A stretch of DNA of 30,593 bases from Chiloscyllium plagiosum (Eukaryota): the NCBI RefSeq assembly GCF_004010195.1, contig NC_057719.1, forward strand, positions 26,779,498 through 26,810,090, read 5' to 3'. This document shows positions 5,228-27,615 of this stretch, piece by piece. Under the pieces are notes generated by a model. It searched no databases. It saw nothing but the letters and a program-made list of their open reading frames with translations, and was not told the DNA's origin. The translations under genes and the position numbers were made by a program. The first letter of the stretch is position 1. Each line of letters starts with the position of its first letter.

Positions 5228-5975
5228 TCATTCATGGTATGTGGTGTTACTAGCAAGGTCAGCACTGTTCCATTCTGGATTGTAGTCATGATGTGGAAGT
5301 GCTGGTGTTGGACTGGAGTGGACAAGTTGAAAATCACACAACACCGGGTTATAGTCCAACAGGTGTATTTAAAAGTACTAGGTTTTGGAACGCTGCTCCT
5401 TCATCAGGTAGCTGTGCAGCAGAATCATAAGACACAGAATTTATAGCAAAAGATCATAGTGTCATGCAACTGAAAAGACATATTGAACAAACTTAACTTA
5501 ACTTAACAATCTAGGTTTGTTCAAAATGTCATTTCATTTGCACGACACTGTGATCTTTTGCTACAAATTCAGTGTCTTATGATCCTGCTCCACAGTTACC
5601 TGTGGAAGGTAGCACTCCAAAAGCCAGCACTTCCAAATAAACCCATTGGACGATAACATGGTGCTGTGTAACTTTTAAGTTGTCCATTCTGGATTGTAAG
5701 AGGACGCATCACCATGTCACCTTCTTGACCACTACAGTCCTTGTGCATTCACACCCAAAAAGGTAGGGATTTTCTGGATATTGACCCAGCAGCGATGCAG
5801 GATTAATTCTATTTTACCGTGTCAGGATGGTGCGAGCCTTGGAGAGGGAGATTTCAAATGATAGTGTTCACTCATATCTAATGTTCTTGCCCACTCAGCA
5901 GATTTGGAAAGGCTAATCGAAGCAGCCTTAAGTTGTTACAGTGCATTCTGCAGATGACATATGCTGTAGCCATGG
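5228..5975 (-). mobile_element. Old LINE 3' fragment split by a Penelope-like insertion (5285-5682)
   Basis: Similar to 2430-2710 in reverse, and continuous across the 16-bp duplication TCCATTCTGGATTGTA. Confidence 0.5.
5285..5682. mobile_element. Penelope-like element-derived palindromic insertion (inverted pseudo-LTRs) with a 16-bp target-site duplication
   Basis: Arms ~5320-5495 and ~5512-5685 are reverse complements (roughly 80% identical by eye), with an ACTTA-repeat spacer. TCCATTCTGGATTGTA occurs at 5269-5284 and 5683-5698. A decayed hammerhead core CTGATGA-A-GGAGC-AGC-GTTCC-AAAA lies on the minus strand (~5383-5407). Confidence 0.75.
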
Positions 5976-8402
5976 AAAGCATGAATGCCTAAGGTGGCAC
6001 GGTGTGCCAAGGGTTGGCCCCCAGCTTGGTGGCCTTAATTCTTTGCGTGGTTTGACACAATGGAATGACTTATTAAGAGGGTGAACACACCTCTTTATTT
6101 CAGCCTAAGAAAGTGATAAGGTGTGTATCATGGTGTGGACTTCGGGGATGTGGGCTGAAAATTATACTTAAGAATCAAAGTAGTGAATAACATTGAGAAA
6201 TCGGTTTTAAAAGATAGAAGTGGGTGTCAACACCATGTAGACGGAAACCAATTTTTGTTGTAGACGAATCTGCCGAGGGGCAATGACTAATCAGAGGAAG
6301 ATATCAAAGTGTATACTTGGAGTTGACGAAAGGAGAAAAGCTTGCTTTAAGAAAAATATTGAAGATGGTAGTTTTCAAAATGGAGGAAACCAGGAGGTGA
6401 AGAAACCATTTGCAAAGAATAAAAACATTCCAGGAAAATGTTGTTTGCTACAGTAAATTGTTAGAACATAGCATTGATGGTCAAAGTGGAATCTATAAGT
6501 TTTAAAGCTACTTTCGTAAATGAAGGAAAGCATTAAGTGAATTTGGGAAAGAGAATGGGATTGACAAAACAGTACTGCACTTACTCTGAGCAGCATAAAT
6601 TGCCCCATTGATAGTACTGCCAGATTTGGTATTCTACAGACAACTTGGATACCTTAGGAGAATTAAGTCAAATCATTACCATTTTAAAATGTCTAAATTC
6701 TCAAGAAAGTGGGATGACAGTCAACAATTTACAGCGACCATTAGCAAATCTCACAAACAATTCAAAAACAGGATATTTAACTTTATAGTTCAAATACATC
6801 TCAGTTTGATTTGTCAGCAATTTGCACATTGATTAACAAGTGTACAGGACAGCAGTGTGAGGTGCCCCATATAGGATGAAGTATTTTTACTAAAATTAGC
6901 ACGACAGAATAAACAGGATGAGACATCTCAATTGTAAGGAAAGATTATACAACATGGAAAGAATTGTAGTCTCTAAAAATACAAAACATACCTTCAGTAA
7001 GTGCTAAGACCAACTCCAGTGCTAATTTATGAAAAACTGACAATACTGTCTTCAGTAATTATATAGTGTATAATGTGTGACAAAATTATAACCCAAAATA
7101 AAGCAATAACTTTTAAAAGATGCTTGAATTCCCAGTGACCAACTTAAACTGCACAGTATGATTTCACATTATAACACTTTTAGAGTCACAAAACAAAACC
7201 TAAAAGCAACATCTATACTTAGTGGGTAGCTAATACTTTAAATTTAGAGAAAAAGATAACTATTATTGATGTCTTCACATGATGATAACCCCATGCAGCA
7301 CATTAGAGCATACTTACCACAAGAGTGTTTCCTGGAAAAGACTGCAGTCTAAACTCTCCTCTAGTGAGTTCACTTTTCCCTGTTTTTCAGAATTGTAACA
7401 CCTCATAACCAAACATCCTTTCCTTCAAACCAGAGAATTTATGGACTGACTTTAAGTATATATGTCGGACCTGGCTGATTCCATCTCGCAAAATCAAAAA
7501 GATGAAACTTTCCGTGCCCTTCAACTGCCGCGGGTTGCCGTTCTTTGATTAGTGGACAAACATTCTGCCTGGTAGGTAATAAGGAAACCATTCTTTTCTC
7601 TCTACAGACCCCAGCACTGCTCTTCCTAGTCTCTCTCTCTCCCTCATTTTTTATCATTTTGAACTGCTCAAAACCATCTGAGAAAATCTGCTTTTACCTT
7701 TTATGGTGCTCAACCCAAGCATAAGTTTTCCAAGGCAACTAAGTGATATGTACTGGTCACTGGATAGACCTCAGTAGATAACATGATCATTTTTACTCTA
7801 TTTCAACCTAAATTTGAAGACGCAGCTAAACATAGCCACCCTGTAAAACATCATATTTGCAACAGAACTAAGGATACAAGAGAAGTTCAGTGCAAATAAT
7901 AGTGCTCGCCCTCAAAACTTTCAGCCACAAACCAGCATTGGAAAACATTTATCTGCCTGAGCACTTCATAAAACAGATTACAGTTCTCATTGAAATGTTC
8001 AATAAATAGTGTCTAAACATTAATTATTTTTCCATTTGCTTTTTGTTTTGTTAATTTGAAGTGCTTACTGTGAATAAAGTTGAATCTCAGACAAAATATT
8101 CATAACTTTGAAAATGGTTGGTCTCATGGGTCTAGGCAAATCAGATTCCATATCATTAAATATTTAATAAATGTGCTGATGCCTGCATACTAAAGTCAGT
8201 GGAATGTTATAAAGCACATGAAAGAGAGAGATTGCGAGACAGCAATGATTCAAATAAGTTCCTTTGAATTTACATACTCGTGAAATTGTGGTCATTTAAG
8301 ACCAAGTTGAAATTTCAAAAAAAAAAACAAAAGTTAACTACCCCAAAACAATGGACTGAATTGTCTTGGATCAGCTAAATAAAATGCAATACGTTACTAG
8401 TG

Positions 8403-8561
8403 GAGAGCAAATATTAAATTTTTGAGTAAATGACACAAACTACAATTGTTTTTGGTGGTTAAAATGTTTTCAATTAATAAATATCCTTCTGAAGATATAG
8501 ATATATCTGTAAGCATGGTAAGAGGATGAAAATACATCTCAACATTTGACAAATAAAACTG
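8403..8561. repeat. Source copy of a 159-bp inverted duplication (partner at 10244-10402)
   Basis: Its reverse complement equals 10244-10402 at 158/159 positions. Confidence 0.97.
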
Positions 8562-9231
8562 TTTAAGTCAATGCCCTTGATAGAATAGTTATGAAAATTG
8601 ATTAGCATTCCAGAAATAAAACCAAATTTATCTCAAGAATCATATTAGCTAAACTGACAAAAAATGAAAGGGCTGAAAAGGAAATTAGATGTAGTCACAA
8701 GATATTTGCTTTAATCCACAGCAGACTTTCTTAGATGAACAGCACATCTATGGTAATGTATTCATGCAGAGTTTCCTGCTCTCTTTGGTTGCATGATTTA
8801 TCTCGCATAGTAATTGTGCATCATGGTCAATGTGAATCAGTTAGGGACCAATTAAATTTTATTCTAAGGCTATATGTCAGGTTACAGTAACCTATCATGT
8901 GATTCCATCCTTCCTTTACATATACTGTAAACTCAATTTATTGATTGGTGACCAGGTGAATTTACTGAACAGTTTATACAAGTCATATGTCCCAAGCCTT
9001 GATCAGTATTATTATACTTTGTTTTTAAGAACTCCCACAACTTTGTTCTCATAATTAATTTGAACTATTTGTTTTTGAAATGTAAAATATTTTTAAAAGG
9101 TAATTCTAAGTACTCTAGAATTTTCTTCCATAAGTGCTAGTAACATCAGAACAGTATACGTAAACATCTGTAGCAAAATATACAGCAGTAAACATCTTGA
9201 GATAGAACCTGCCTCACAGAGCTCTTCAATA

Positions 9232-9601
9232 ATCATAGAATCCTCCAGTATGGAAACAGGCCCTTTAGCACGACAAGTCCACATAGACCCTCTGAAGACT
9301 AACCCACCTAGACTTATTCCGCTACCTATTACTCTACATTACTTATGCACCTAACCTACACATCCCTGAACACTATGGGTAATTTTACACAGCCAATTCA
9401 CCCAAACTGCGCATCTTTGGATTGTGGGAGGAAACCCAGGTAGATACAGGGAGAATGTGCAAACTCCACACAGACAGACGCCGGACGGTGGAATCGAACC
9501 CAGGTCCTTGACACTGAGGCAGCAGTTTCTGGATTAGTGGTGCTGGAAGAGCACAGCAGTTCAGGCAGCATCCGAGGAGCAGTGCTAACCACTGGGCCAC
9601 C
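9232..9601 (-). mobile_element. HE1-like tRNA-derived V-SINE with a Penelope-derived fragment inserted in its head
   Basis: The reverse complement has a tRNA-like head (GTGGCCCAGTGGTTAGCACTGCT; GGTTCGATTCC), the V-domain GTGTGGAGTTTGCACATTCTCCC and the CR1-like tail GGGCCTGTTTCCATACTG. Confidence 0.88.
9527..9577 (-). mobile_element. Short Penelope pseudo-LTR fragment
   Basis: GTGGTGCTGGAAGAGCACAGCAGTTCAGGCAGCATCCGAGG matches 10083-10123 and is flanked by AGCAGT at 9521-9526 and 9578-9583. Confidence 0.75.
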
Positions 9602-10163
9602 CATTTGAATTAAACCATTCAAATTTAGGAAATTATGAAATATCACAGCACAAGTCAGTTGTTTTGTTGCCTTATCTTGTACTCAGCTTCAAGCTACCCC
9701 GACAAATGTCATGATTTTTATACCCTGCTTGTATTATTCCCATCCCTTACAAGAATTAGTTCGTTTCTGCCCTTTCTTCTCCAAAAGTCAGTGACAGCTT
9801 CTTGGTGAACTGTCCCATAGACAGCAATCCTCGCTCTACTTGGTTTTTTTTCTCTCTATTCGGAAGTGGGTGCTGCAAATGTGATAAGGCTATTTCACAG
9901 CAGGTATCATAACATTGATTGTAATCTTGCTGAACCTTCAAACATTTAATCCCCAGAATTTGGGAATCCTAACAGGTTATTTTCCCCCCCTCCCTTCCCT
10001 AACCCCAGGACAATGATGCCTATTGTATACTTTGGCTGAGATTTAGCTAAATCTGCATTAGCTACAAATTGAAGTCGAGAGTGTGGTGCTGGGAAAGCAC
10101 AGCAGGTTAGGCAGCATTCGAGGAGCAGGAGAGTCGACACCCCGGGCACAACCCCCTCCAACC

Positions 10164-10208
10164 AGGAATTCCTGATGAAGGGCTTATGCCCGAAACGTCG
10201 ATTCTCCT
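10164..10208 (+). ncRNA. Minimal type I hammerhead ribozyme motif (Penelope-associated)
   Basis: CTGATGA (10172-10178), A, stem II GGGC-TTAT-GCCC, GAAA (10192-10195), palindromic ACGT in place of stem III, GUC triplet ending at 10199, and an imperfect stem I AGGAATTC/GATTCTCCT. Activity is not shown. Confidence 0.7.
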
Positions 10209-10243
10209 GCTCCTCAGATGCTGCCTGACCTGCTGTGCTTTTC

Positions 10244-10402
10244 CAGTTTTATTTGTCAAATGTTGAGATGTATTTTCATCCTCTTACCATGCTTACAGAT
10301 ATATCTATATCTTCAGAAGGATATTTATTAATTGAAAACATTTTAACCACCAAAAACAATTGTAGTTTGTGTCATTTACTCAAAAATTTAATGTTTGCTC
10401 TC
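10244..10402. repeat. Inverted copy of 8403-8561 inserted in the Penelope-derived element
   Basis: 158/159 identity (single difference at 10393), with CAG and CTCTC microhomologies at the two junctions. Confidence 0.97.
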
Positions 10403-12062
10403 GACTCTGATCTCCAGCATCTGCAGTCCTTACTTTCAACTGGCTACAAACTGAACACTGGATTACCTTGGGCCTCATTGTTCAGCTACACAATAGGCAA
10501 AATTGTTAAATTACAATAGTGCAATGATGTCTACAGAAGTACCGCTTTGGGATTTTCCTCTCAGTTTTGTTTGGCTCCAAAATAGAGTAACTATAACGTA
10601 CAGTAAGGAGAAACTAGCTATGGCACATCAACAGTCAAATATGAACTGCTACTTTGTCCTGATGTTATTCCTTTGACATCCAGAAGAAGAATGAGCAATT
10701 GATTGGCTAACTCAATTTTTCAGTAACAATACTACTTTCATAAGAGCTGCACAGTGAAGTTACTGTAAAATGCTGTGCTACTATACCATTTAAACAATAG
10801 TCTAAAAGAATATATAGTATACTGGTTGCATAAATTACATGTTCCATTTTCCTGAAGCAGTGATTTATTATAGTAGTTGGATTTTAACCAATTGAGATTA
10901 TACAATAAACAGCATGTTTCACTGTAATGGAATGCAAATCTAATGTTTACACTCTAAAGGGAATTAAAATAAGAAACCAGCTATTCTTGACAAATTGTAC
11001 ATGCAACATCTGTGAAACACAGAATTGATACTGCATTCAAAACTGGATATTCTCCTATTTAGACACCATTTTACAACAGATTCACGGGAACATATTGAAA
11101 TCAGAGCACTTAATGGTTGTGAGAGTTTGAAACAATAACCTGAAATGCAACAGGAAAACCCTAAAACAAAGCAGTAGCTTTACAGCATTGCACTAACAGC
11201 TGGAGGACATTAACACGTGGAGCTAGTCAGTTAAATAAAATTACAGATCAATTCTACTCAAATCACATTGCCCACAAGTGGAACTTGCCATATGGTAACT
11301 CTCCTAACAGTCCCACCAGTGCAAAGTTAACAGAACATATGACCAAAGAAGAAAAATATATTCTGTGGTGTGCTCCAGCAGTGATTGATTGCAGGGTTAA
11401 CAACATTGGTAACACATTTAATACATTATTGATCTGAACAGTTGATTTTGTGCTAGTGTACTTTCCTTCATGTATAGCCCACTTTATGACAGCATTTGCC
11501 TTGCCCACCCATATTTTAATTATAAACGCTTTTTAATTAAAAATATTTAGTTCATTTGTACACCAGTTAAAAATAAAACTGATGTTACATCCAAGGTCAA
11601 ACCAGAAATGGCAACACAAATTGCTCCACCCAATAAAGTCTGATGTCATGTCATGAACAAAGGTTTATTGTATCTTGCACCAAACCCAACCCTTGATCAG
11701 CACATCCTGTATCTTTTGTTTTTTTTTGTTAAAAAAAGAATCTCACATGGTTGCAGCTTTGCAGCATTTTAGCCTTGGGTTTGTGTCTCAAGCCTATCTT
11801 TCAAACCTGCAAATGTTATAACTTGGAAAGAGTTTTTAAAAAGTTCTCAGACCATAATGGGGAAGATGTCAACAAAACAACTCGATTTAACAACTCATCT
11901 CTGTGGTGTTTCCCACAGAAAGAGGTCCCTAACACAATCACATCTTGCTAAATGTTGTAACCTAATTAAGGAGTACCAGAATGAGAATACCTACAGCGTA
12001 ATCAACAGTTTAAAGTTACAGTACTTCTCGCATGCTCAAATTAATAAAAATATAGCTTAAAT

Positions 12063-15335: not shown

Positions 15336-15467
15336 GGAGAAAGTGAGGAATACAGATGTTGATGACCAGAGTCAAGAGTGTGCGGTGCTGGAAAAGCACA
15401 GCAGGTCATGCAGCAGCCAAGGAGCAGGAGAATCAATGTTTCGGGCAGGACCCCTTCATCAGGAATC
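15336..15467 (-). mobile_element. Penelope pseudo-LTR solo copy with a decayed hammerhead motif
   Basis: The reverse complement reads ATTCCTGATGAAGGGGTCCTGCCCGAAACATTGATTCTCCT... and is flanked by the imperfect direct repeats ATTAGTGCAGTG (15324-15335) and ATTAGCACAGTG (15470-15481). Confidence 0.8.
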
Positions 15468-16568: not shown

Positions 16569-17630
16569 ACCAACAAACAAAACAAAAATGGAGGTACCAA
16601 CAGTTTAAAAAAAAGATGCATTCAGGTGACTACTTTATCACTTAGAAGTTAAAAGGATCTAAAAGTATGTACCTTTTTAAATATGCAAATATTATATTTA
16701 TATTAATACAAGTTAAAAAGTAGTGTTATATAATGTAGGCTATATAGTCTGCTCTGAACTTGAAGTTTATTCACTCCAAACAAATTTGTATTATCTACGT
16801 TTCAAATGAAACGGCACAAAATAAACAGAATATGAACAATTCTTTGGAGCAAAACAGTCCAGATTTGTTGGATTAAGATCATTTAAAGCATGCAATAGAA
16901 AAAGTACAATTAAAGCAAGAGTGTGATCCAATATTTTATTCAAATGCTACCGTGATAGGGAACCTAATGGCGTGCACTAGTACTGTTGTTGAAATCTACA
17001 TTCATGAAACCTGAGACGAAGTTCATTTGCAACAGTACAACAGCAATCCCACACAATCACAAATAAATATATGGGAATGGAGCCCATACTGGCTAAATGT
17101 GTGCTTGCACGCCGCATGCCTACAGCGTGATCATTTACTCCCACCCACAGATCCTGGGGTGAAACTTGGGTGAGGGGGAGGAGAGTGGACAACTTAACTC
17201 ACTCAATGTAGTTATTGCAATTAATTGAGCCACATGAGCAAGTTTTCCAGGACTTCTCCCTCCCCCCCCCGCGGGAACTGCTGTTTAGCTTTTTTCTTGC
17301 AAACTCAGATTCTTTTCGCCTGAGATCACTTTATTTACAGGAAAAACTGCCACCCATAGCATGGAAAATCTAACCCTGCTGAGTGAGCGCCTGGCTGGTC
17401 TACTGTGTAGCCATCACTCAGCCATCTCCTTATCTTTTCCCCACCCCAACCAACAAAAAAAGTCCTCAACCCTCCCCCTCCACCGGATAGCATCTCGACC
17501 TAAACAGGTAACAAAGAGCCCAGACTGGAGGGGGGGAAAAAAAGAGGAAAAAGACTTAACCGGGGTCTGGAGGTCAGCCCGGACCCAGAGGCCTGTGGCT
17601 GGGCGAGTCACCGGCCTCTCTCTCTCTCAC

Positions 17631-17799
17631 CTGCATAGTGGTCGAACACGGTCGGCACATATTCCTCCGGGAAGGCGTCGTTGGCGTAGCTCATGAGCAG
17701 ACAGGTCTTCCCCACCGCGCCGTCCCCCACCACCACACACTTCAGCATGTGCCGCTGCTGCTGGGCTAGCGGCCGCTGCTCTTTTCCAGCCCCCGGCAT
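17631..17799 (-). CDS. RHOJ: First coding exon of a TC10-subfamily Rho GTPase (RhoJ/TCL favoured; RhoQ/TC10 not excluded)
   Basis: Translates to [56 protein letters not shown], the P-loop and switch I segment shared by RhoJ and RhoQ. The ATG is in an accATG context. The 169 nt end in phase 1 at GCAG|gtgaga. The 17-aa extension and very long intron 1 favour RHOJ (symbol confidence ~0.7). Confidence 0.95.
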
Positions 17800-19817: not shown

Positions 19818-21544
19818 AACTGCAGGTTATGGGTGAGATACTAAACAATTACTTTGCATCAGTGTTTCCTCTGGGCGATATGGAAGATAGAGAATGTGGG
19901 GAAATAAATAGCGACATCTTTAAAAGTATCCCTATTCCAGAGGAGGAGGAGCTGGATGTCTAAAAATGCATAGAAGTGAATAAATCCCCAGGATTAGATC
20001 AGGTGTACCCTTGAATTTTGTAGGAAGCTAGGAGTGTGATTGCTGGGTCCCTTGCTGAGATATTTGTAACATCGTTAGTCACAAGTAAGGTGCCAGAAGA
20101 CTGCAGTTTGGCTAACATGGTGCCATTGTTTAAGAAAGGTGGTAAGGAAACACCAGGGAATTAAACACCAGTGAGCCTGACATCAGTGGTGGGCAAGTTG
20201 TTGGAGAGGATTCTGCAGGGCCGGAATTTTCACATATTTGGAAAGGCAGGGACTGATTAGGCATAGTCATCATGGCTTTGTGGGTGGGAAATTACGTCTC
20301 ACTAACTTGAGTTTTTTTGAAGAAGCGATGAAGTGGATTGCTGAGGGCAGAGCAGTGAACGTAATCTATGTGGACTTCAGTCAGTTGATCGAAAAGGTTC
20401 AGCATGAGAGATTAATTGGCAAGGTTGGATCACATGGAATACAGGAAGAACCAGCCATTTGTATACAGAACTGGCTTGAAGGTAGAAGACAGGTTGTTGG
20501 CAGAGAGTTGTTTTTTGGGCTGGAGGCCTGTGACCAGCGGAGTGCCACAGGGATTGGTGCTAGGTCCACTGCTTTTGTCATTTATATAAATGATTAGGAT
20601 GTGAATATAGGAGGTATGGTTAGTAAATTTTCAGATGACACCAAAATTGGAGGTGTCGTGGACAGTGAAGAAGGTTCTCTCAGTACTATGGAACCTCGAT
20701 CAGATGGGCCAATGGGTCAGGGAATGGCAGATAGAGGTTAATTTAGATAAATGTGGGGTGCTGCATTTTGGAAAGGCAAATCAGAGCAGGGCTCATACAC
20801 TTAATGGTAAGGTCTTGGGAAGTGTTGCTGAGCAAAGGGACATTGGAGTACAGGTTCATAATTCGGAGAAAGTGGAATTGCAGGTAGTCAGGACAGTGAA
20901 GAAGGCATTTGGTATGTTTCTCTTTATTGGTCAGTACATTGAGTACAGGAGGTGGGAGGTCTTGTTGTGGCTGTACAGGACATTAGTTAGGCCACTTTTG
21001 GAATACTGCATTTCATTCTGGTCTCCTTGCTACAGGAAAGATTTTGTTAAATTTGAAAATGTTCAGAAAAGATTTACATAGATGTTGCGAGGGTTAGAGA
21101 GTTTGAACTTTAGGGAGAGGCTGAACAGCCTGGGGCTGTTTTACCTAGAGTGTCGGAGGCTGAGGGGTGACCTTATAGAGGTTTATAAAAGCATGAGGGG
21201 GCGTGGATAGGGTGAATAGTCAAGGTCTTTTCTCCAGGGTAGGGGAGTCTAAAACTGGAGGGCATTGGTTTAAGGTGAGAGGAGAAAGATTTAAAAGGGA
21301 TCTAAGGGACAACTTTTTCACGCAGAGGGTGGTGCATGTATTGAATAAACTGGCAGAAGAGGTGGTGGAGTCTGGTACAATTGTAACATGTAAAAGTCAT
21401 CTGGATGGGTATATGAATAGGAAGGATTTAGAGAGATATGGGCTAGGTGCTGGCAGGTGGGACTAGATTGGATTAGGATATCTGGTCGGCTTGGAGGAGT
21501 TTGACTGAAGGTCTGTTTCTGTACTATACAACGCTATAACTGTA
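19818..21544 (+). mobile_element. 5'-truncated CR1 (HER1-like) LINE, ~1.7 kb, disrupted ORF2
   Basis: Fragments KSPGLDQVYP, PVSLTSVVGKLLE, VIYVDFS, FVIYIND, LYRTLVRPLLEYC and FFTQRVV across frameshifts and stops; typical 3' UTR. Confidence 0.95.
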
Positions 21545-21716
21545 TTTCAATTCATGTTAGTGGCTACACACCTTCTGTAAAGAGGTTCTGCTGTGATCGG
21601 GGATGCTAACGGTCCAAATTAAATATCATGGAATCACAAATAACCAACTGACACACATAAAGGAGTAATGTTCCTTCCAAATTCATTTTTTCGATGGGTA
21701 AGAGTAAGTGAGATAT

Positions 21717-22137: not shown

Positions 22138-23397
22138 TCATAGAGTCATAGAGATGTACAGCATGGAAACAGACCCTTCGGTCCAACCTGTCCAAGCCAA
22201 CCAGGTATCCCAACCCAATCTAGTCCCACCCGCCAGCACTGGGCCCATATCCATCCAAACCCTTCCTATTCATATACCCATCCAAATGCTTTTTAAATGT
22301 TGCAATTGTACCCCCAGCCTCCACCACTTCCTCTGGCAGCTTATTCCATATGTACCACCCTCTGTGTGAAAAAGTTGCCCCTTAGGTCTCTCATATCTTT
22401 TCCCTCTCACCCTAAACCTATGCCCTCTAGTTCTGGACTACCTGACCCCAGGGAAAAGACTTTGCCTATTTACCCTATCCATGCCTCTCATAACTTTGTA
22501 AACCTCTATAAAATCACCCCTCAGCCTCTGACGCTCCAGGGAAAACAGCCCCAGCCTATTCAGCCTTTCCCTATAGCTCAAATCCTCCAACCCTGGCAAC
22601 ATCCTTGTAAATCTTTTCTGAATCCTTTCAAGTTTTGCAACATGTTAGGTAAGGGGTAAATGTAGGGGTATGGGTGGGTTATGCTTCGGTGGGTCGGTGT
22701 GGACTTGTTGGGCCGAAGGGCCTGTTTCCACACTGTAATGTAATCTAATCTAATGTTTCCGATAGGAAGGAGACCAGAATTGCATGCAATATTCCAAAAG
22801 TGGCCTAACCAATGTCCCATACAGCTGCAACATGACCTCCCAAATACTCTGACCAATAAAATAAAGCATGCCAAACGCCTTCTTCACTATCCCATGTACC
22901 TGAGCCTCTACTTTCAAGGAGCTATGAATCTGCACTCCAAGGTCTCTTTATTCAGCAACACTCCCTTGGACCTTACCATTAAGTGTATAAGTACTATTAA
23001 GATTTGCTTTCCCAAATTACAGCACCTCACATTTATCTGAATTGAACTCCATCTGCTACTTCTCAGCCCATTGGCCCATATGGTCAAGATCCTGTTGTAA
23101 TCTGAGGTAACCCTTTTCACTGTCCACTACACCTCCAGTTTTGGTGTCATCTGCAAACTTACTAACTGTACCTCTTATGCTCGCATCCAAATCATTTATG
23201 TAAATGACAAAAAGTAGAGGACCCAGCAGCGATCCTTGTGGCACTCCAATGGTCACAGGCATCCAGTCTGAAAAACAACTTTCCGCCACCACCCTCTGTC
23301 TTCTACCTTTGAGCTAGTTCTGTGTCCAAATGGTTAGTCCTCCCTGTATTCCATGAGATCTAACCTTGTTAATCAGTCTCCCATGGGGAACCTTGTC
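22138..23397 (-). mobile_element. 5'-truncated CR1 LINE with a nested SINE tail
   Basis: Minus-strand ORF pieces GVPQGSLLGPLLFVIYINDLD, KFADDTK and LVRPLLEYCMQFWSP; the 3' tail reads CATAGAGTCATAGAGATGTACAGC on +. Confidence 0.95.
22647..22752 (+). mobile_element. 5'-truncated HE1-like SINE tail inserted in CR1
   Basis: GGGTCGGTGTGGACTTGTTGGGCCGAAGGGCCTGTTTCCACACTGTAATGTAATCTAATCTA, flanked by ATGTT at 22642-22646 and 22753-22757. Confidence 0.88.
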
Positions 23398-23811
23398 GTC
23401 TTCTGCCTTGAAACCCTTCAACCACAAGGCATCAACATTGACAACTTGTTTTTAAATCTCCCCACCCCCCCGCCTCATCCCATTTCCAACCCTCCAACCC
23501 AGCACCACCTTCTTGAACTGACCTACCTGTCTATCTTCCTGCCCACCTATCTGCTCCACCCTCCCCTCCGAAATATCAGTATCAGACACCACCTACCTGC
23601 GTCTACCTGTCACGTTCCCAGCTACCTTCCCCCCAATCCCCACCCTCCTTTTTATCTCTCAGCCCTCTTCTCCCCCTCCACATTCCTGATGAAGGGCTTA
23701 TGCCCAAACCATCGACTCTCCTGCTCTTTAGATGCTGCCTGACCTGTTGTGCTTTTCCAGTGCCACACTTTTTGACTCTGATCTCCAGCATCTGCAGACC
23801 TCACTTTCACC
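23395..23811 (+). mobile_element. Penelope-like element 3' end (end of the endonuclease domain, pyrimidine-rich UTR, pseudo-LTR)
   Basis: VFCLETLQPQGINID resembles the C-terminus of PLE GIY-YIG domains. CTGATGAAGGGCTTATGCCC at 23686 is a hammerhead core with GAAA mutated. The end matches that of 10071-10437. Confidence 0.8.
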
Positions 23812-23824
23812 TTTGGTGCAATGA

Positions 23825-24569: not shown

Positions 24570-25041
24570 TATGTCAAACTGAGAGACCACCATGCCAGGC
24601 CGAGAGGATGCCACAGGAAGTCACTCTGCCAGACTGGGAGGTTGCTATGGCAGGTTAGGAGGCTGCTATGCCAAGCTGGGATGTTGCTATGCCAGGCCTG
24701 GAGGTCGTTCTGCCAGGCTGGGAGATCACTACCATAGGTGAGGAGGCTGCTATGCCAGGCCGGGATGTTGCTACGCTAGGCTGGGCGGTCACAGTGCTGG
24801 GCCAAGAGGCTGCTATATCAGGCTAGGAGGCCGCTGTGCCAGGCTGAGACGCCACTACACCAGGCTGGGAGATCACTCTGCACTAGCTGGGAGGCTGCTT
24901 AACCAGACTGGTAGGCTGCTAAACCAGGCCAAGAGGTCATTATGCCAGGCTGGGAGGTTGCTATGCCAGGTTGGGAGACCACTACGCTAGGCCGGGAGTT
25001 TGCTCCGCCCTAGCTGGGAGGTCGCTACGCCAGACCGGGAG
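24570..25041. repeat. Degenerate 21-bp minisatellite, about 20-22 units (consensus ~GCCAGGCTGGGAGGYTGCTAT)
   Basis: Consecutive units GCCAGACTGGGAGGTTGCTAT, GGCAGGTTAGGAGGCTGCTAT, GCCAAGCTGGGATGTTGCTAT and so on, with no spacers. Confidence 0.92.
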
Positions 25042-25075
25042 CTCTCTCATTGTGTCTGTGGTGAGGTCGGGTGTC

Positions 25076-25190
25076 ATTGGAGGCTGGCAGTTGACTGTGG
25101 GCTAGCAGTTGATTGGAGGTCAGAAGTTGCTGGAGGCTGGGAGTCAGTTGGAGGCTGGGAGTTGATTGGAGGTCAGAAGTTGCTGGAGGC
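25076..25190. repeat. 17-18-bp tandem repeat with a 53-bp higher-order period
   Basis: TGGAGG-cored units; AGTTGATTGGAGGTCAGAAGTTGCTGGAGGC occurs at 25107-25137 and 25160-25190. Confidence 0.85.
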
Positions 25191-26384: not shown

Positions 26385-27615
26385 AAATGATTGAGTTTCA
26401 AGAAGAAGTTGCTTCATATGTTCAGACAGAGGTGGAGGAGTGTCGATAATGGGCTGACAAGATGTGACCTATATGGACTTCAGTAAGTTGTTTGACAAGT
26501 TCCCCATAGAAGATTGGTTAGCAAAGTTAGATCTCATGGAATACAGGGAGAATGAGCCATTTGGATACAGAACTGGCTCAAAGGTAGAAGGTGGTGGTGG
26601 AGGGTTTTCAGATTGGAGGCCTGTGACTAGTGGAATGCCCCAAGGATCAGTTCTGGGTCCACTACTTTTCATCATTTATATAAATGATTTGGATGTGAGC
26701 ATAAGAGATACAGTTATTAAATTTGCACATGACGGCAAAATTGGAGGTGTAGTGGATAGCCTCGGATTACAATGGTATCTTGATCAGATGGGCCATTGGG
26801 CTGAGGAGTGGCAGATGGAATTTAATTTAGATGAATGTGAGGTGCTGCATTTTGGGAAAGCAAATCTTAGCAGGACTTATACACTTAATGGTAAGGTCAT
26901 AGCGAATGTTGCTGAACAAAGAGATCTTGGAGTGCAGTTTCATAGCTCCTTGAAAGTAGAGGCACAGGTAAATGGGATAGTGAAGAAGGTGTTTGGCATG
27001 CTTTCCTTTATTGGTCAGAGTATTGACTGCAGGAGTTGGGAAGTTATGTTGCTGCTGTATAGGACATTGGTTAGGTCATGGTTGGAATTTTGCGTGCAAT
27101 TCTGGTCTCTTTCCTATCGGAAGGATGTTGTGAAACCTGAAAGGGTTCAGAAAAGACTTACATGGATGTTGCCAGCATTGGAGGATTTGAGCTATCAGGA
27201 GAGGTTGTTAAGGCTAGGGCTGGTTTCTTGGAGTGTCGGAGGCTGAGGAGTGACCTCATAGAGGTTTATAAAATCATGAGGGGCATGGATACGGTAAATA
27301 GACCAGGTCTATTCCTTGGAGTGGGAGAGTCCAGAACTAGCATAGGTTTAGGGTGAGAGGGGAAAGATATAGAAGAGACCTAGGGGACAACATTTTCACA
27401 CAGAGAATGGTGCATGTGTGGAATAGGCTATCAGAGGAAGTGGTGGTACAATTGCAACATTTTAAAAGCATCTGGATGGGTATATGAATACAAAGGTTTA
27501 GAGGGATATGGGCCAAGTGCTGGTAGGTGGGACTAGATTGGGTTGGGATATCTGGTCGGCATGGATGAGTTGGACCGAGGGGTCTGTTTCCGGGCTGTAC
27601 ATCTCCATGACTCCC
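26385..27615 (+). mobile_element. 5'-truncated CR1 LINE
   Basis: ORF 26464..27246 contains GMPQGSVLGPLLFIIYINDLD, KFAHDGK (catalytic DD mutated) and LYRTLVRSWLEFCVQFWS. The 3' UTR ends in GCTGTACATCTCCATGACTC. Confidence 0.95.

Follow-up and report, generated by a model that had tools for sequence, protein, structure and literature searches.

A probable DNA template switch-and-return at the hairpin foot of a Penelope-type element

Inverted templated insertions that use 2-12 nt of microhomology have been described in the germline (PMC8421209; PMC5453318). In classical MMB-TI, as presented in PMC8421209, a nearby inverted copy replaces a few bases, both junctions carry microhomology or microhomeology, synthesis returns to the original template, and germline variants occur. 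The four-point template-switch model makes an inverted repeat when its switch points are ordered 3-2-1-4 or 1-4-3-2, a type that accounts for 31% of the human-chimp events in PMC5453318; the model is explicitly short-range in that account, which leaves long-range switches untreated. Pol-theta templated insertions come from microhomology-primed synthesis, are direct or inverted and AT-rich, and typically copy 3-30 bp from the immediate flanks, according to PMC7165422. The experimental Class 2 templated sequence insertions (TSI/TSIP) in PMC5110952 have a median length of 191 bp (range, 73-414 bp), with a microdeletion, microhomology and no TSD. Penelope-like elements are described as having head-to-head arms, a one-sided tail of 30-40 nt, a TSD and a minimal hammerhead core (PMC3846280; PMC4209133), and the captures reported in PMC3846280 come with insertion.

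The window analysed here, a 30,593-nt stretch of Chiloscyllium plagiosum (organism A), contains a Penelope-type element interrupted by an inverted copy of DNA from 1.7 kb away on the same contig (Table 1). The patch shares the features of classical MMB-TI listed above, but the search distance is 100 bp there and 1.7 kb here, and the present case is an evolutionary fossil in a fish-like genome. It has the switch-point order and the inverted repeat of the four-point type, with a tract of 151-159 nt. It resembles Class 2 TSI in size, intact donor, microdeletion, microhomology and lack of a TSD or poly(A), but donors there are distant. The element has the arms, tail, TSD and predicted hammerhead core of Penelope-like elements; unlike the captures described for them, the patch is younger than the insertion and sits at the foot of the stem instead of between the arms. 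The 1.7-kb distance exceeds that of the short-range events in the template-switch literature compared. The best explanation, and a probable one, is a microhomology-primed DNA template switch-and-return, that is, an MMBIR/FoSTeS-type templated insertion at a hairpin foot that left an ordinary scar.

Table 1. Positions of the host exon, donor, patch and element features in the window.
Feature	Position	Strand	Basis or remark
First coding exon, TC10-type Rho GTPase (RhoQ/RhoJ-like)	17631..17799	-	39/39 residues identical to TC10, PDB 2atx; Pfam Ras
Donor segment, AT-rich intron-like DNA	8403..8561	-	Copy has the donor's minus-strand sequence on its + strand
Weak predicted hairpin in donor	8381..8422	-	5-nt microhomology overlaps its top and loop; A8412 paired
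Left TSD of whole element	10061..10073	+	12/13 identical to 10443-10455; 14/17 when extended
Left (inverted) arm	10074..10171	-	Hammerhead core at about 10138-10165 degraded; organisms B and C also have the left end
Right arm up to break	10168..10246	+	Intact minimal-hammerhead core 10172-10199 (predicted)
Inverted copy of donor	10244..10402	+	Sequence match; empty state seen family-wide in paralog loose ends
Left-junction microhomology CAG	10244..10246	+	X1 contig starts exactly here
Single donor/copy difference, G in copy	10393	+	Partner is 8412
Right-junction microhomology CTCTC	10398..10402, extended 10398..10406	+	8/9 against 8399-8407; likely priming end
Right-arm remainder, hairpin foot	10398..10405	+	Exact mirror of 10074-10081
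One-sided 32-nt tail	10406..10437	+	Paralogs run on past 10437; tail joined to right flank in organism B
Right TSD	10443..10455	+	Direct orientation relative to left TSD

Self-comparison of the window aligned the reverse complement of 10244-10402 with 8403-8561 at 158 of 159 positions without gaps, in agreement with the original prediction, which had also noted the shared CAG and CTCTC at the two ends (3 nt left, 5 nt right) and the replacement of 7 nt. The copy thus consists of 151 new nt plus its 3-nt and 5-nt shared ends, and the missing 7 nt are corroborated by the mirror arm and by the loose-end consensus of paralog contigs in 4/4 runs. The sole mismatch sets T at 8412 against G at 10393, or A on the donor minus strand against G in the plus sense of the copy; for its polarity, the position is absent from the contig difference rows listed (40 of 75). 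Microhomology exceeds chance at both junctions: only 0.055% of 100,000 random-breakpoint draws gave at least 5 nt at one junction and at least 3 at the other. The right-hand match extends to 8/9 with one mismatch. The insert is 73% A+T. No TSD, poly(A) or untemplated bases were found at the patch, and the element sequence continues in register past it. The donor is intact in the window and in contigs of two relatives, organisms B and C. A third copy of the 159-mer was not found in the window by word-7 blastn, in which the five other matches all measured 12-17 nt (E 0.16-0.55); a dispersed repeat within the window was rejected on this ground.

Donor and copy probably lie in the first intron of a TC10-type GTPase gene, whose first coding exon is adjoined by a GT at 17630. 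No later-exon motif of the GTPase was found in the window, and the translation of an exon-like stretch (7318-7570), with X in place of each stop, gave matches to 0 Pfam families.

The insertion that hosts the patch is built from head-to-head short arms, a one-sided 32-nt tail and a TSD, and its arms form a 188-nt imperfect palindrome. By these sequence features it is assigned to the Penelope-like elements, which have inverted pLTR arms, a one-sided 30-40-nt tail and a TSD. A minimal hammerhead of the kind found in pLTRs is predicted from the core, the extra base before stem II, the G-C closing pair and the palindromic 15.2-16.2 positions, judged by eye against the description in PMC4209133 and with a weak helix I. 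Rfam gave 0 matches in the window at the gathering score, hammerhead included, and at E<=5 only hairpin-like miRNA and lncRNA models below their own cut-offs. Penelope-like elements are also marked by a linked ORF for a PLE-type RT and a GIY-YIG endonuclease; this copy of the element has no ORF, and two exact-pattern scans of metagenome contigs for the element returned 0 loci. As DNA, the inferred empty site has a folding energy of -88.6 kcal/mol, and both patch junctions are 4-18 nt from the hairpin foot. The hairpin is mildly supported as the cause of the break, since by chance about one break in five (36/188) would fall 18 nt or less from one foot or the other.

The age of the patch was approached through contigs from four of 24 listed sequencing runs (X1 and X5, together with X9 from organism B and X19 from organism C), compared over 9610-11010; the donor's own flanks lie outside this stretch, and the flank identity of donor-path contigs in B and C is presumed. 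In organism B, contigs link both element ends to unique flanks, the 159-mer is found at 1900-2058 of an unbroken 2337-nt contig, and depth over 10268-10361 equals that of a single 159-mer contig (10.4 and 10.4). In organism C, the element's left end is present and the 159-mer occupies 42-204 of an unbroken 1387-nt contig; two bins over the insert show extra, unassigned cover (162 and 284 depth-bases), which may reflect a second 159-mer copy. The overlap between contigs and the element ends in B and C, 23-24 letters, is below the 31 letters required for bridging. Position 10286 is A in the copy and the donor but G in the contig of B and the 1387-nt contig of C. Class 2 TSIP are polymorphic within a species; X1 contains a second flank haplotype at a depth of about 4. 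Donor and copy differ at 1/159 positions, the outer arms of the element at 5/49 and the TSD halves at 1/13. The probability of at most one difference is 1.5e-6 if the patch is as old as the arms, 0.04 if it dates from the A-C split and 0.20 if it dates from the A-B split, so an origin after the latter does not follow from divergence alone.

From the presence of both element ends with the 159-mer once in the contigs of B, and from the 1/159 against 5/49 divergence, the patch can be placed after element integration. In B, the patch would be missing as far as its contigs go, the absence of a second copy being an absence from contigs. Overall, the proposal of a recent, local, inverted templated insertion with two-sided microhomology in a palindromic Penelope-type element is supported.

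The DNA template-switch explanation would involve two steps. In the first, insertion of a Penelope-type element produced head-to-head short arms, a tail on one side and a 13-bp TSD, and with them the 188-nt imperfect palindrome; element anatomy and sister-species contigs establish this step at the level of sequence. The second step belongs to the lineage of organism A and to a much later time, when a break would have formed at the right hairpin foot or DNA synthesis stalled there. The 3' end would then have annealed via 5 nt (8/9) to the opposite strand 1.7 kb off, copied 151 nt and returned via 3 nt, skipping 7 nt, in the order 3-2-1-4 or its mirror of the four-point model. Replication or host-gene transcription may have exposed the template, and the single A/G difference would have arisen as a copying error or a later point mutation, or would reflect variation between alleles. 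The order of the second step is established and its mechanism is the likely one; enzyme and template chemistry are not recorded by the fossil. As in MMBIR/FoSTeS, existing genomic sequence was copied with its donor left intact, and synthesis resumed on the original template with collinear flanks (in-register element, direct TSD). Nothing in the patch requires an RNA template. Of the sources named as typical in the original prediction, replication or repair template switching holds, whereas Pol-theta end joining is weakened by the length of the tract.

Among the alternatives, RNA-templated repair survives best, and it is unlikely. Here the right broken end, after integration, would have primed on nascent host pre-mRNA and been extended by a reverse transcriptase. 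Candidate enzymes would be those of Penelope or LINE elements, Pol theta or Pol zeta, and A>G would perhaps be a fixed A-to-I edit. Repair of this kind has been reported in human cells (PMC8195485; PMC12065846), and Class 2 TSI have been argued to be RNA-derived (PMC5110952). At this locus, the longer homology (8/9) falls at the end whose template would be the host-sense strand, and A8412 is paired with a probability of 0.97-1.0 in 6/6 predicted RNA folds of the donor region. That stem is weak, however, and no stronger than shuffles (RNA, -5.4 kcal/mol, z -0.80; DNA, -0.4 kcal/mol, z +1.43), and 15-22 of the 52 donor A's pair at p>0.9 in the five folds spanning the donor in full. The two arguments first offered for RNA, strand orientation and the A>G change, proved weak, and what speaks for it is the longer homology on the host-sense side and the A in a weakly predicted stem. 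Single substitutions in this sequence have an expected A>G share of 16-26% (prior, 0.16-0.26), and if the plus strand was copied, A>G makes up half of all Pol-theta substitutions (T.dGMP 42e-4; PMC2441791 Table 3). The change involves 1/51 A's of the copy's plus strand and could lie on either side. Because either end could prime at a two-ended break, an insert of either orientation could be made from RNA or DNA; the survey of strand bias proposed earlier therefore tests only the version in which a reverse transcriptase switches templates. Transcription of the donor is extrapolated from one exon 9 kb away, and of the RNA hallmarks (spliced junction, poly(A), several edits) the patch offers one A/G difference alone, although an intronic template could leave none. 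Distant donors support the RNA route in Class 2 TSI; with the local donor found here, a DNA switch explains the patch directly.

The absence of a duplex for ADAR in the donor RNA is contradicted by the weak predicted stem. A cryptic poly(A) retrocopy was rejected because there is no A-tail and AATAAA occurs only on the strand opposite to the host gene. Host-sense DNA strand and nascent RNA are indistinguishable as templates by sequence.

A wider form of the RNA explanation is less likely again. In this form, old Penelope palindromes would be re-broken recurrently near the arm/tail boundary and patched from about 1 kb off with nascent, sometimes edited, host pre-mRNA. Re-breaking could proceed via hairpin processing or the element's own endonuclease. 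The left arm carries a cluster of T>C changes (6/7); in a search for a nearby exact template of its mutated core, the longest matches were 9-10 nt, none within 2 kb. If the wider form were true, the patch, and possibly the T>C cluster, would preserve in fossil form RNA-templated repair in the germline of a vertebrate, and because the element has so many copies, such events could be counted across the genome.

Still less likely is an artefact of assembly or library, with the insert not in the animal at all. Of the contig pieces, 32 were listed and a further 350,289 were not, and 0/32 of those listed bridge either junction. The donor-path contig of X1, which is conspecific, passes the right junction unbroken, for which graph cleaning is the only account offered. 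X5 is uninformative, with no listed piece on the insert and a cover hole at 10268-10314, and such uncovered parts were left out as evidence of absence. Against an artefact, the X1 donor-path contig starts exactly at 10244, the first base common to donor and copy, as expected if the graph branches at the left junction, and 2/2 outgroup contigs pass through the corresponding point on the donor. Fold-back read chimeras are not known to give two-ended microhomology, a 7-nt loss, an in-register return and an internal difference, all of which occur here. Misassembly is accordingly unlikely.

Canonical Pol-theta end joining (TMEJ), with the insertion made in one tract, is very unlikely. Two-ended microhomology, the small deletion and the AT-rich insert suit it, as does the mismatch, which matches the commonest Pol theta error, and insertions of up to 157 bp have been seen, the long ones made via several rounds (PMC7165422). 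The templated insertions described there are 3-30 bp long, with single tracts rarely >10 bp, and come from flanking DNA (PMC7165422), whereas the patch is a single 151-nt tract with a donor 1.7 kb off. The return junction may still have been sealed by Pol theta, a case counted here under the DNA template switch.

More improbable still is that, while the element was integrating, the Penelope reverse transcriptase left the element RNA for host pre-mRNA and then returned. Penelope elements in rotifers have captured host DNA (PMC3846280), and the site lies 4-18 nt from the arm/tail boundary, which corresponds to an RT start site in Anolis Poseidon (PMC11167929). A cDNA begun in the tail would meet the 5-nt homology first, and the orientation would be as required. 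Such a switch needs patch and element to be of equal age and the capture to be common to all carriers. B has both ends of the element and C its left end, while the 159-mer occurs once in B, an absence that rests on contigs, and the 1/159 divergence falls below that of the arms. That the patch post-dates integration argues against a switch during insertion, and this option of the original prediction is not supported; its rescue would require that gene conversion acted recently in A and that the second copy was lost or filtered out in B. Staggered-break inversions leave inverted duplicates flanking a segment, as seen here, but a 1.7-kb inversion that duplicated 159 bp at its ends is hardly credible and was rejected, since the arm resumes in register and the two TSD halves (10061 and 10443) have direct orientation, which means that 8562-10243 and the right flank have kept their relative orientation, and outgroup contigs cross the donor without entering the element.

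As a DNA template switch, the patch is a known kind of event, one neutral-looking scar of a described class, and has no evident function. Literature searches not aimed at proving absence listed no title that deals with this locus or with templated patches in the Penelope copies of sharks. The patch alone matters little beyond being a clean example, roughly datable because the host repeat supplies an exact empty site and the sister species supply the order of events. Its value grows only within a series: a high-copy element of known consensus lets such patches be counted and tested for hairpin position, genic or intergenic location and the end with the longer homology, and the series would bear on the frequency with which RNA serves in the repair of germline breaks. 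The patch also creates a near-perfect 159-bp inverted repeat with a predicted duplex of -249.6 kcal/mol, which, in a presumed intron, is a possible new editing substrate.

The locus most likely holds a genuine inverted insertion of young age, templated locally and produced by microhomology-mediated DNA template switching inside an older Penelope-type palindrome. In a self-comparison of the window, 8403-8561 (the donor) and the reverse complement of 10244-10402 (the copy) are identical at 158/159 positions without gaps, as the original prediction held; the sole difference is T at 8412 against G at 10393. Nothing else in the window forms a long near-identical pair: the remaining self-matches of at least 100 nt are all less than 90% alike. 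The donor had been called unique-looking, and within the window there is no third copy of the 159-mer, other matches all being at most 17 nt (blastn, word 7). Both proposed microhomologies common to donor and acceptor are seen, CAG on the left and CTCTC on the right, and the latter reaches 8/9 nt when extended. Of 100,000 random-breakpoint draws, 0.055% gave 5 nt or more of microhomology at one junction together with 3 nt or more at the second. The acceptor lost 7 bases, again as proposed; their identity is read from the mirror arm and was independently recovered, in agreement, from the loose-end consensus of paralogous contigs in 4/4 runs compared.

The label Penelope rests on layout and ribozyme motif, because no reverse transcriptase or endonuclease gene linked to the host element was found at the locus. 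Its arms mirror each other outwards as far as 10074 and 10405, and arms, tail and target-site duplication have the layout (inverted pLTR, tail, duplication) that passages of PMC3846280 give for rotifer Penelope elements.

Features of the element that hosts the insertion
Feature	Position	Strand	Details
Head-to-head repeat interrupted by the copy	10074-10437		arms plus tail
Right-arm hammerhead motifs	CUGAUGA at 10172, GAAA at 10192	+	short stem II
One-sided tail	after 10405, right side only		32 nt
Target-site duplication	10061-10073 and 10443-10455		13 bp; 12/13 identical, 14/17 extended; flanks whole element

Matched by eye, stem II of the right-arm hammerhead follows an extra base, the closing pair is G-C and GAAA is followed by a palindromic CG, traits that part of PMC4209133 assigns to minimal hammerheads of Penelope-like elements; the likeness is one of sequence. 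An Rfam search of the window did not recognise a hammerhead. At least about 88,000-101,000 contigs per run match 9610-11010, with nearly all depth on the host element, which therefore belongs to a very high-copy family. The repeat families here would suit a shark-like animal. Other copies, or pieces of copies, of this hammerhead-bearing family lie at 23682-23812 (+), 15336-15466 (-) and 9537-9582 (-), the last within a SINE-like repeat, and the insert is absent from the equivalent site in all three.

The relative age of the insertion was addressed with the contigs of 4/24 listed runs from three organisms (X1 and X5 from A, the species whose runs match best; X9 and X19 from the sister organisms B and C, respectively), at 90% likeness and for positions 9610-11010 only. 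In B, one contig of the left flank (record 25) continues into the left arm for 24 nt, and another (record 27) starts within the tail and continues into the right flank; in C, record 10 enters the left arm by 23 nt. These contigs lie at the exact element boundary and stop where the repeat would break a contig, the overlaps in B (24 nt) and C (23 nt) being below the 31-letter bridging threshold. The 159-mer of B, at 1900-2058 of a 2337-nt contig, stays outside the host element, and this contig alone gives the depth in two bins within the insert (10.4, 10.4). In C, the 159-mer is at 42-204 of a 1387-nt contig (record 13); additional cover over the insert (162 and 284 depth-bases) may be a second copy of the 159-mer or, at a guess, a second haplotype. 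B differs from the copy at 3 positions over 159 nt and C at 6 over 163 nt, and 10286 is A in both window copies and G in B and in record 13. Donor and copy diverge at 1/159, outer arms at 5/49 and the target-site duplication at 1/13. The probability of at most one difference is 1.5e-6 for a patch as old as the arms, whose differences may in part come from different source templates; with the A-C distance it rises to 0.04, and with the A-B distance to 0.20. Taken together, the sister contigs, the 10286 alleles and these probabilities place the patch later than the integration of the element and, probably, within A's lineage. The predicted recency holds (1/159 against 5/49 in the outer arms), and a patch younger than its element argues against a reverse-transcriptase switch during integration, one version of the RNA-templated origin that had also been put forward.

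X1 has a second flank haplotype in 10476-11010 (depth about 4 vs about 8), which differs at 5/118 and 10/194 letters, shares alleles with B and C, and may be deep shared polymorphism, introgression or a paralog. B also has two forms in this flank. At 9985-9986, X1 and X5 both differ from the window, by C>T and by the loss of 1 nt from a C-run; the window's version is either an allele of its own or a consensus error.

The inferred empty site is a 188-nt palindrome with a predicted DNA fold of -88.6 kcal/mol, and its right foot has both junctions close by, 4-18 nt away. Leftward synthesis may have stalled on entering the hairpin foot, or the foot may have been cut. The 3' end would have paired with the minus strand at 8403-8407 through the 5-nt (8/9) homology, copied 151 nt, and returned through 3 nt, skipping 7 nt. 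A part for the hairpin is only plausible, since a break as near to either foot has a chance of about 1 in 5 (36/188). In four-point notation the order would be 3-2-1-4 or its mirror, which passages of PMC5453318 put at 31% of human-chimp template-switch events; that model is restricted to short-range switches, whereas the donor here is 1.7 kb away. Similarly, the "classical" germline inverted templated insertions (about ten per person, with microhomology at most junctions) had templates sought within 100 bp, according to part of PMC8421209. The patch is most likely a further case of a kind of templated insertion that has already been described.

Polymerase theta or replication template switching had been offered as makers. 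Template switching remains the best reading, whereas Pol theta fits poorly as sole author because its canonical scars measure 3-30 bp and a single tract seldom exceeds 10 bp (sections of PMC7165422), against 151 nt copied here. It could have sealed the return junction.

An RNA-templated origin is improbable. Orientation of the copied strand, once taken as an RNA clue, would say nothing about repair of a two-ended break, because the product is the same whether the left end primes on the plus strand or the right end on its minus-strand counterpart or the RNA of that strand. Of the two homologies, the longer belongs to the end that would prime on the host-sense strand, an arrangement that suits nascent RNA and, no less, the DNA strand displaced in a transcribed gene. 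The compatibility of the lone A>G with an RNA template stands in part: A8412 is paired in 6/6 predicted RNA folds (p 0.97-1.0), but the predicted stem is weak (-5.4 kcal/mol, z -0.80), 15-22/52 donor A's are as firmly paired in the five folds that span the full donor, and the prior for such a change is 0.16-0.26 at transition biases of 2-8. At the rates in Table 3 of PMC2441791, A>G is half of all Pol-theta substitutions on a plus-strand template and 6% on a minus-strand one. One difference in B, outside the 40/75 rows listed, is compatible with ancestral A at 10393. Class 2 templated sequence insertions, argued in portions of PMC5110952 to be RNA-derived, match the patch in size and junction type; however, their donors are distant and this one is local. 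Even if RNA were the template, the patch would be of a known kind.

Donor and copy presumably lie in intron 1 of a TC10-type Rho GTPase gene, since the sole GTPase exon in the window is 17631-17799 (minus strand, 39/39 residues identical to TC10) and a search of the window for motifs of later exons found none. An exon-like stretch at 7318-7570 (minus strand) has an AG acceptor and a GTAAGT donor; it has stops in every frame, one frame being 83 codons with two stops, and its translation with X at stops had no Pfam match.

Relative to the mirror arm, 6/7 T's in the left arm's inner 26 nt (10138-10165) show T>C; in its outer 48 nt the figure is 1/5, a single change accounted for by CpG decay of the opposite arm. 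Read on the minus strand, the inner changes form an A>G cluster, and they destroy the left arm's hammerhead core. By sequence, the cluster resembles hyper-editing fixed by reverse transcription. Alternatively, C-rich sequence native to the element's upstream flank may have formed a mosaic here: a 9-mer immediately preceding the core of the family copy at 23682 is shared, and paralog loose ends before 10168 look similar. Among the papers that a search on hyper-edited genomic retrocopies listed, judged by title, none concerned a T>C cluster of this kind. A second palindrome with a CUGAUGA-type core, at 5316-5689, is unrelated in sequence to the host element; its arms are 79% alike, their differences are mostly A/G transitions (20/44 mismatches), and it has no cluster like the left arm's.

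That the insert is a misassembly, absent from the animal, is unlikely. A 1753-nt contig of X1 (record 3) starts at 10244, the first base common to donor and copy, exactly as a branch at the left junction would predict, and 2/2 outgroup contigs run through this point unbroken. X1 may be the window's own source sample. Record 3 has 2 differences over 163 nt, the same as the window's donor, and follows the donor path unbroken across the right junction, which would suit a misassembly, as would a hole at 10268-10314 in X5, with no contig on the insert among the matches listed. No contig bridges either junction among the 32 matches listed for the four runs, beyond which there are at least 350,289. 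A staggered-break inversion is excluded because the target-site duplication is direct and the arm resumes in register after the copy.

Elsewhere in the window, 24574-25186 holds degenerate tandem arrays whose spacing is 21 nt and 18/35 nt. Pieces of a fragment at 22140-23398 match 20366-21545 and 26469-27613, inverted. The fragment, which we take to be LINE-like, is broken at 22643-22754 by the end of a repeat that we take to be SINE-like.
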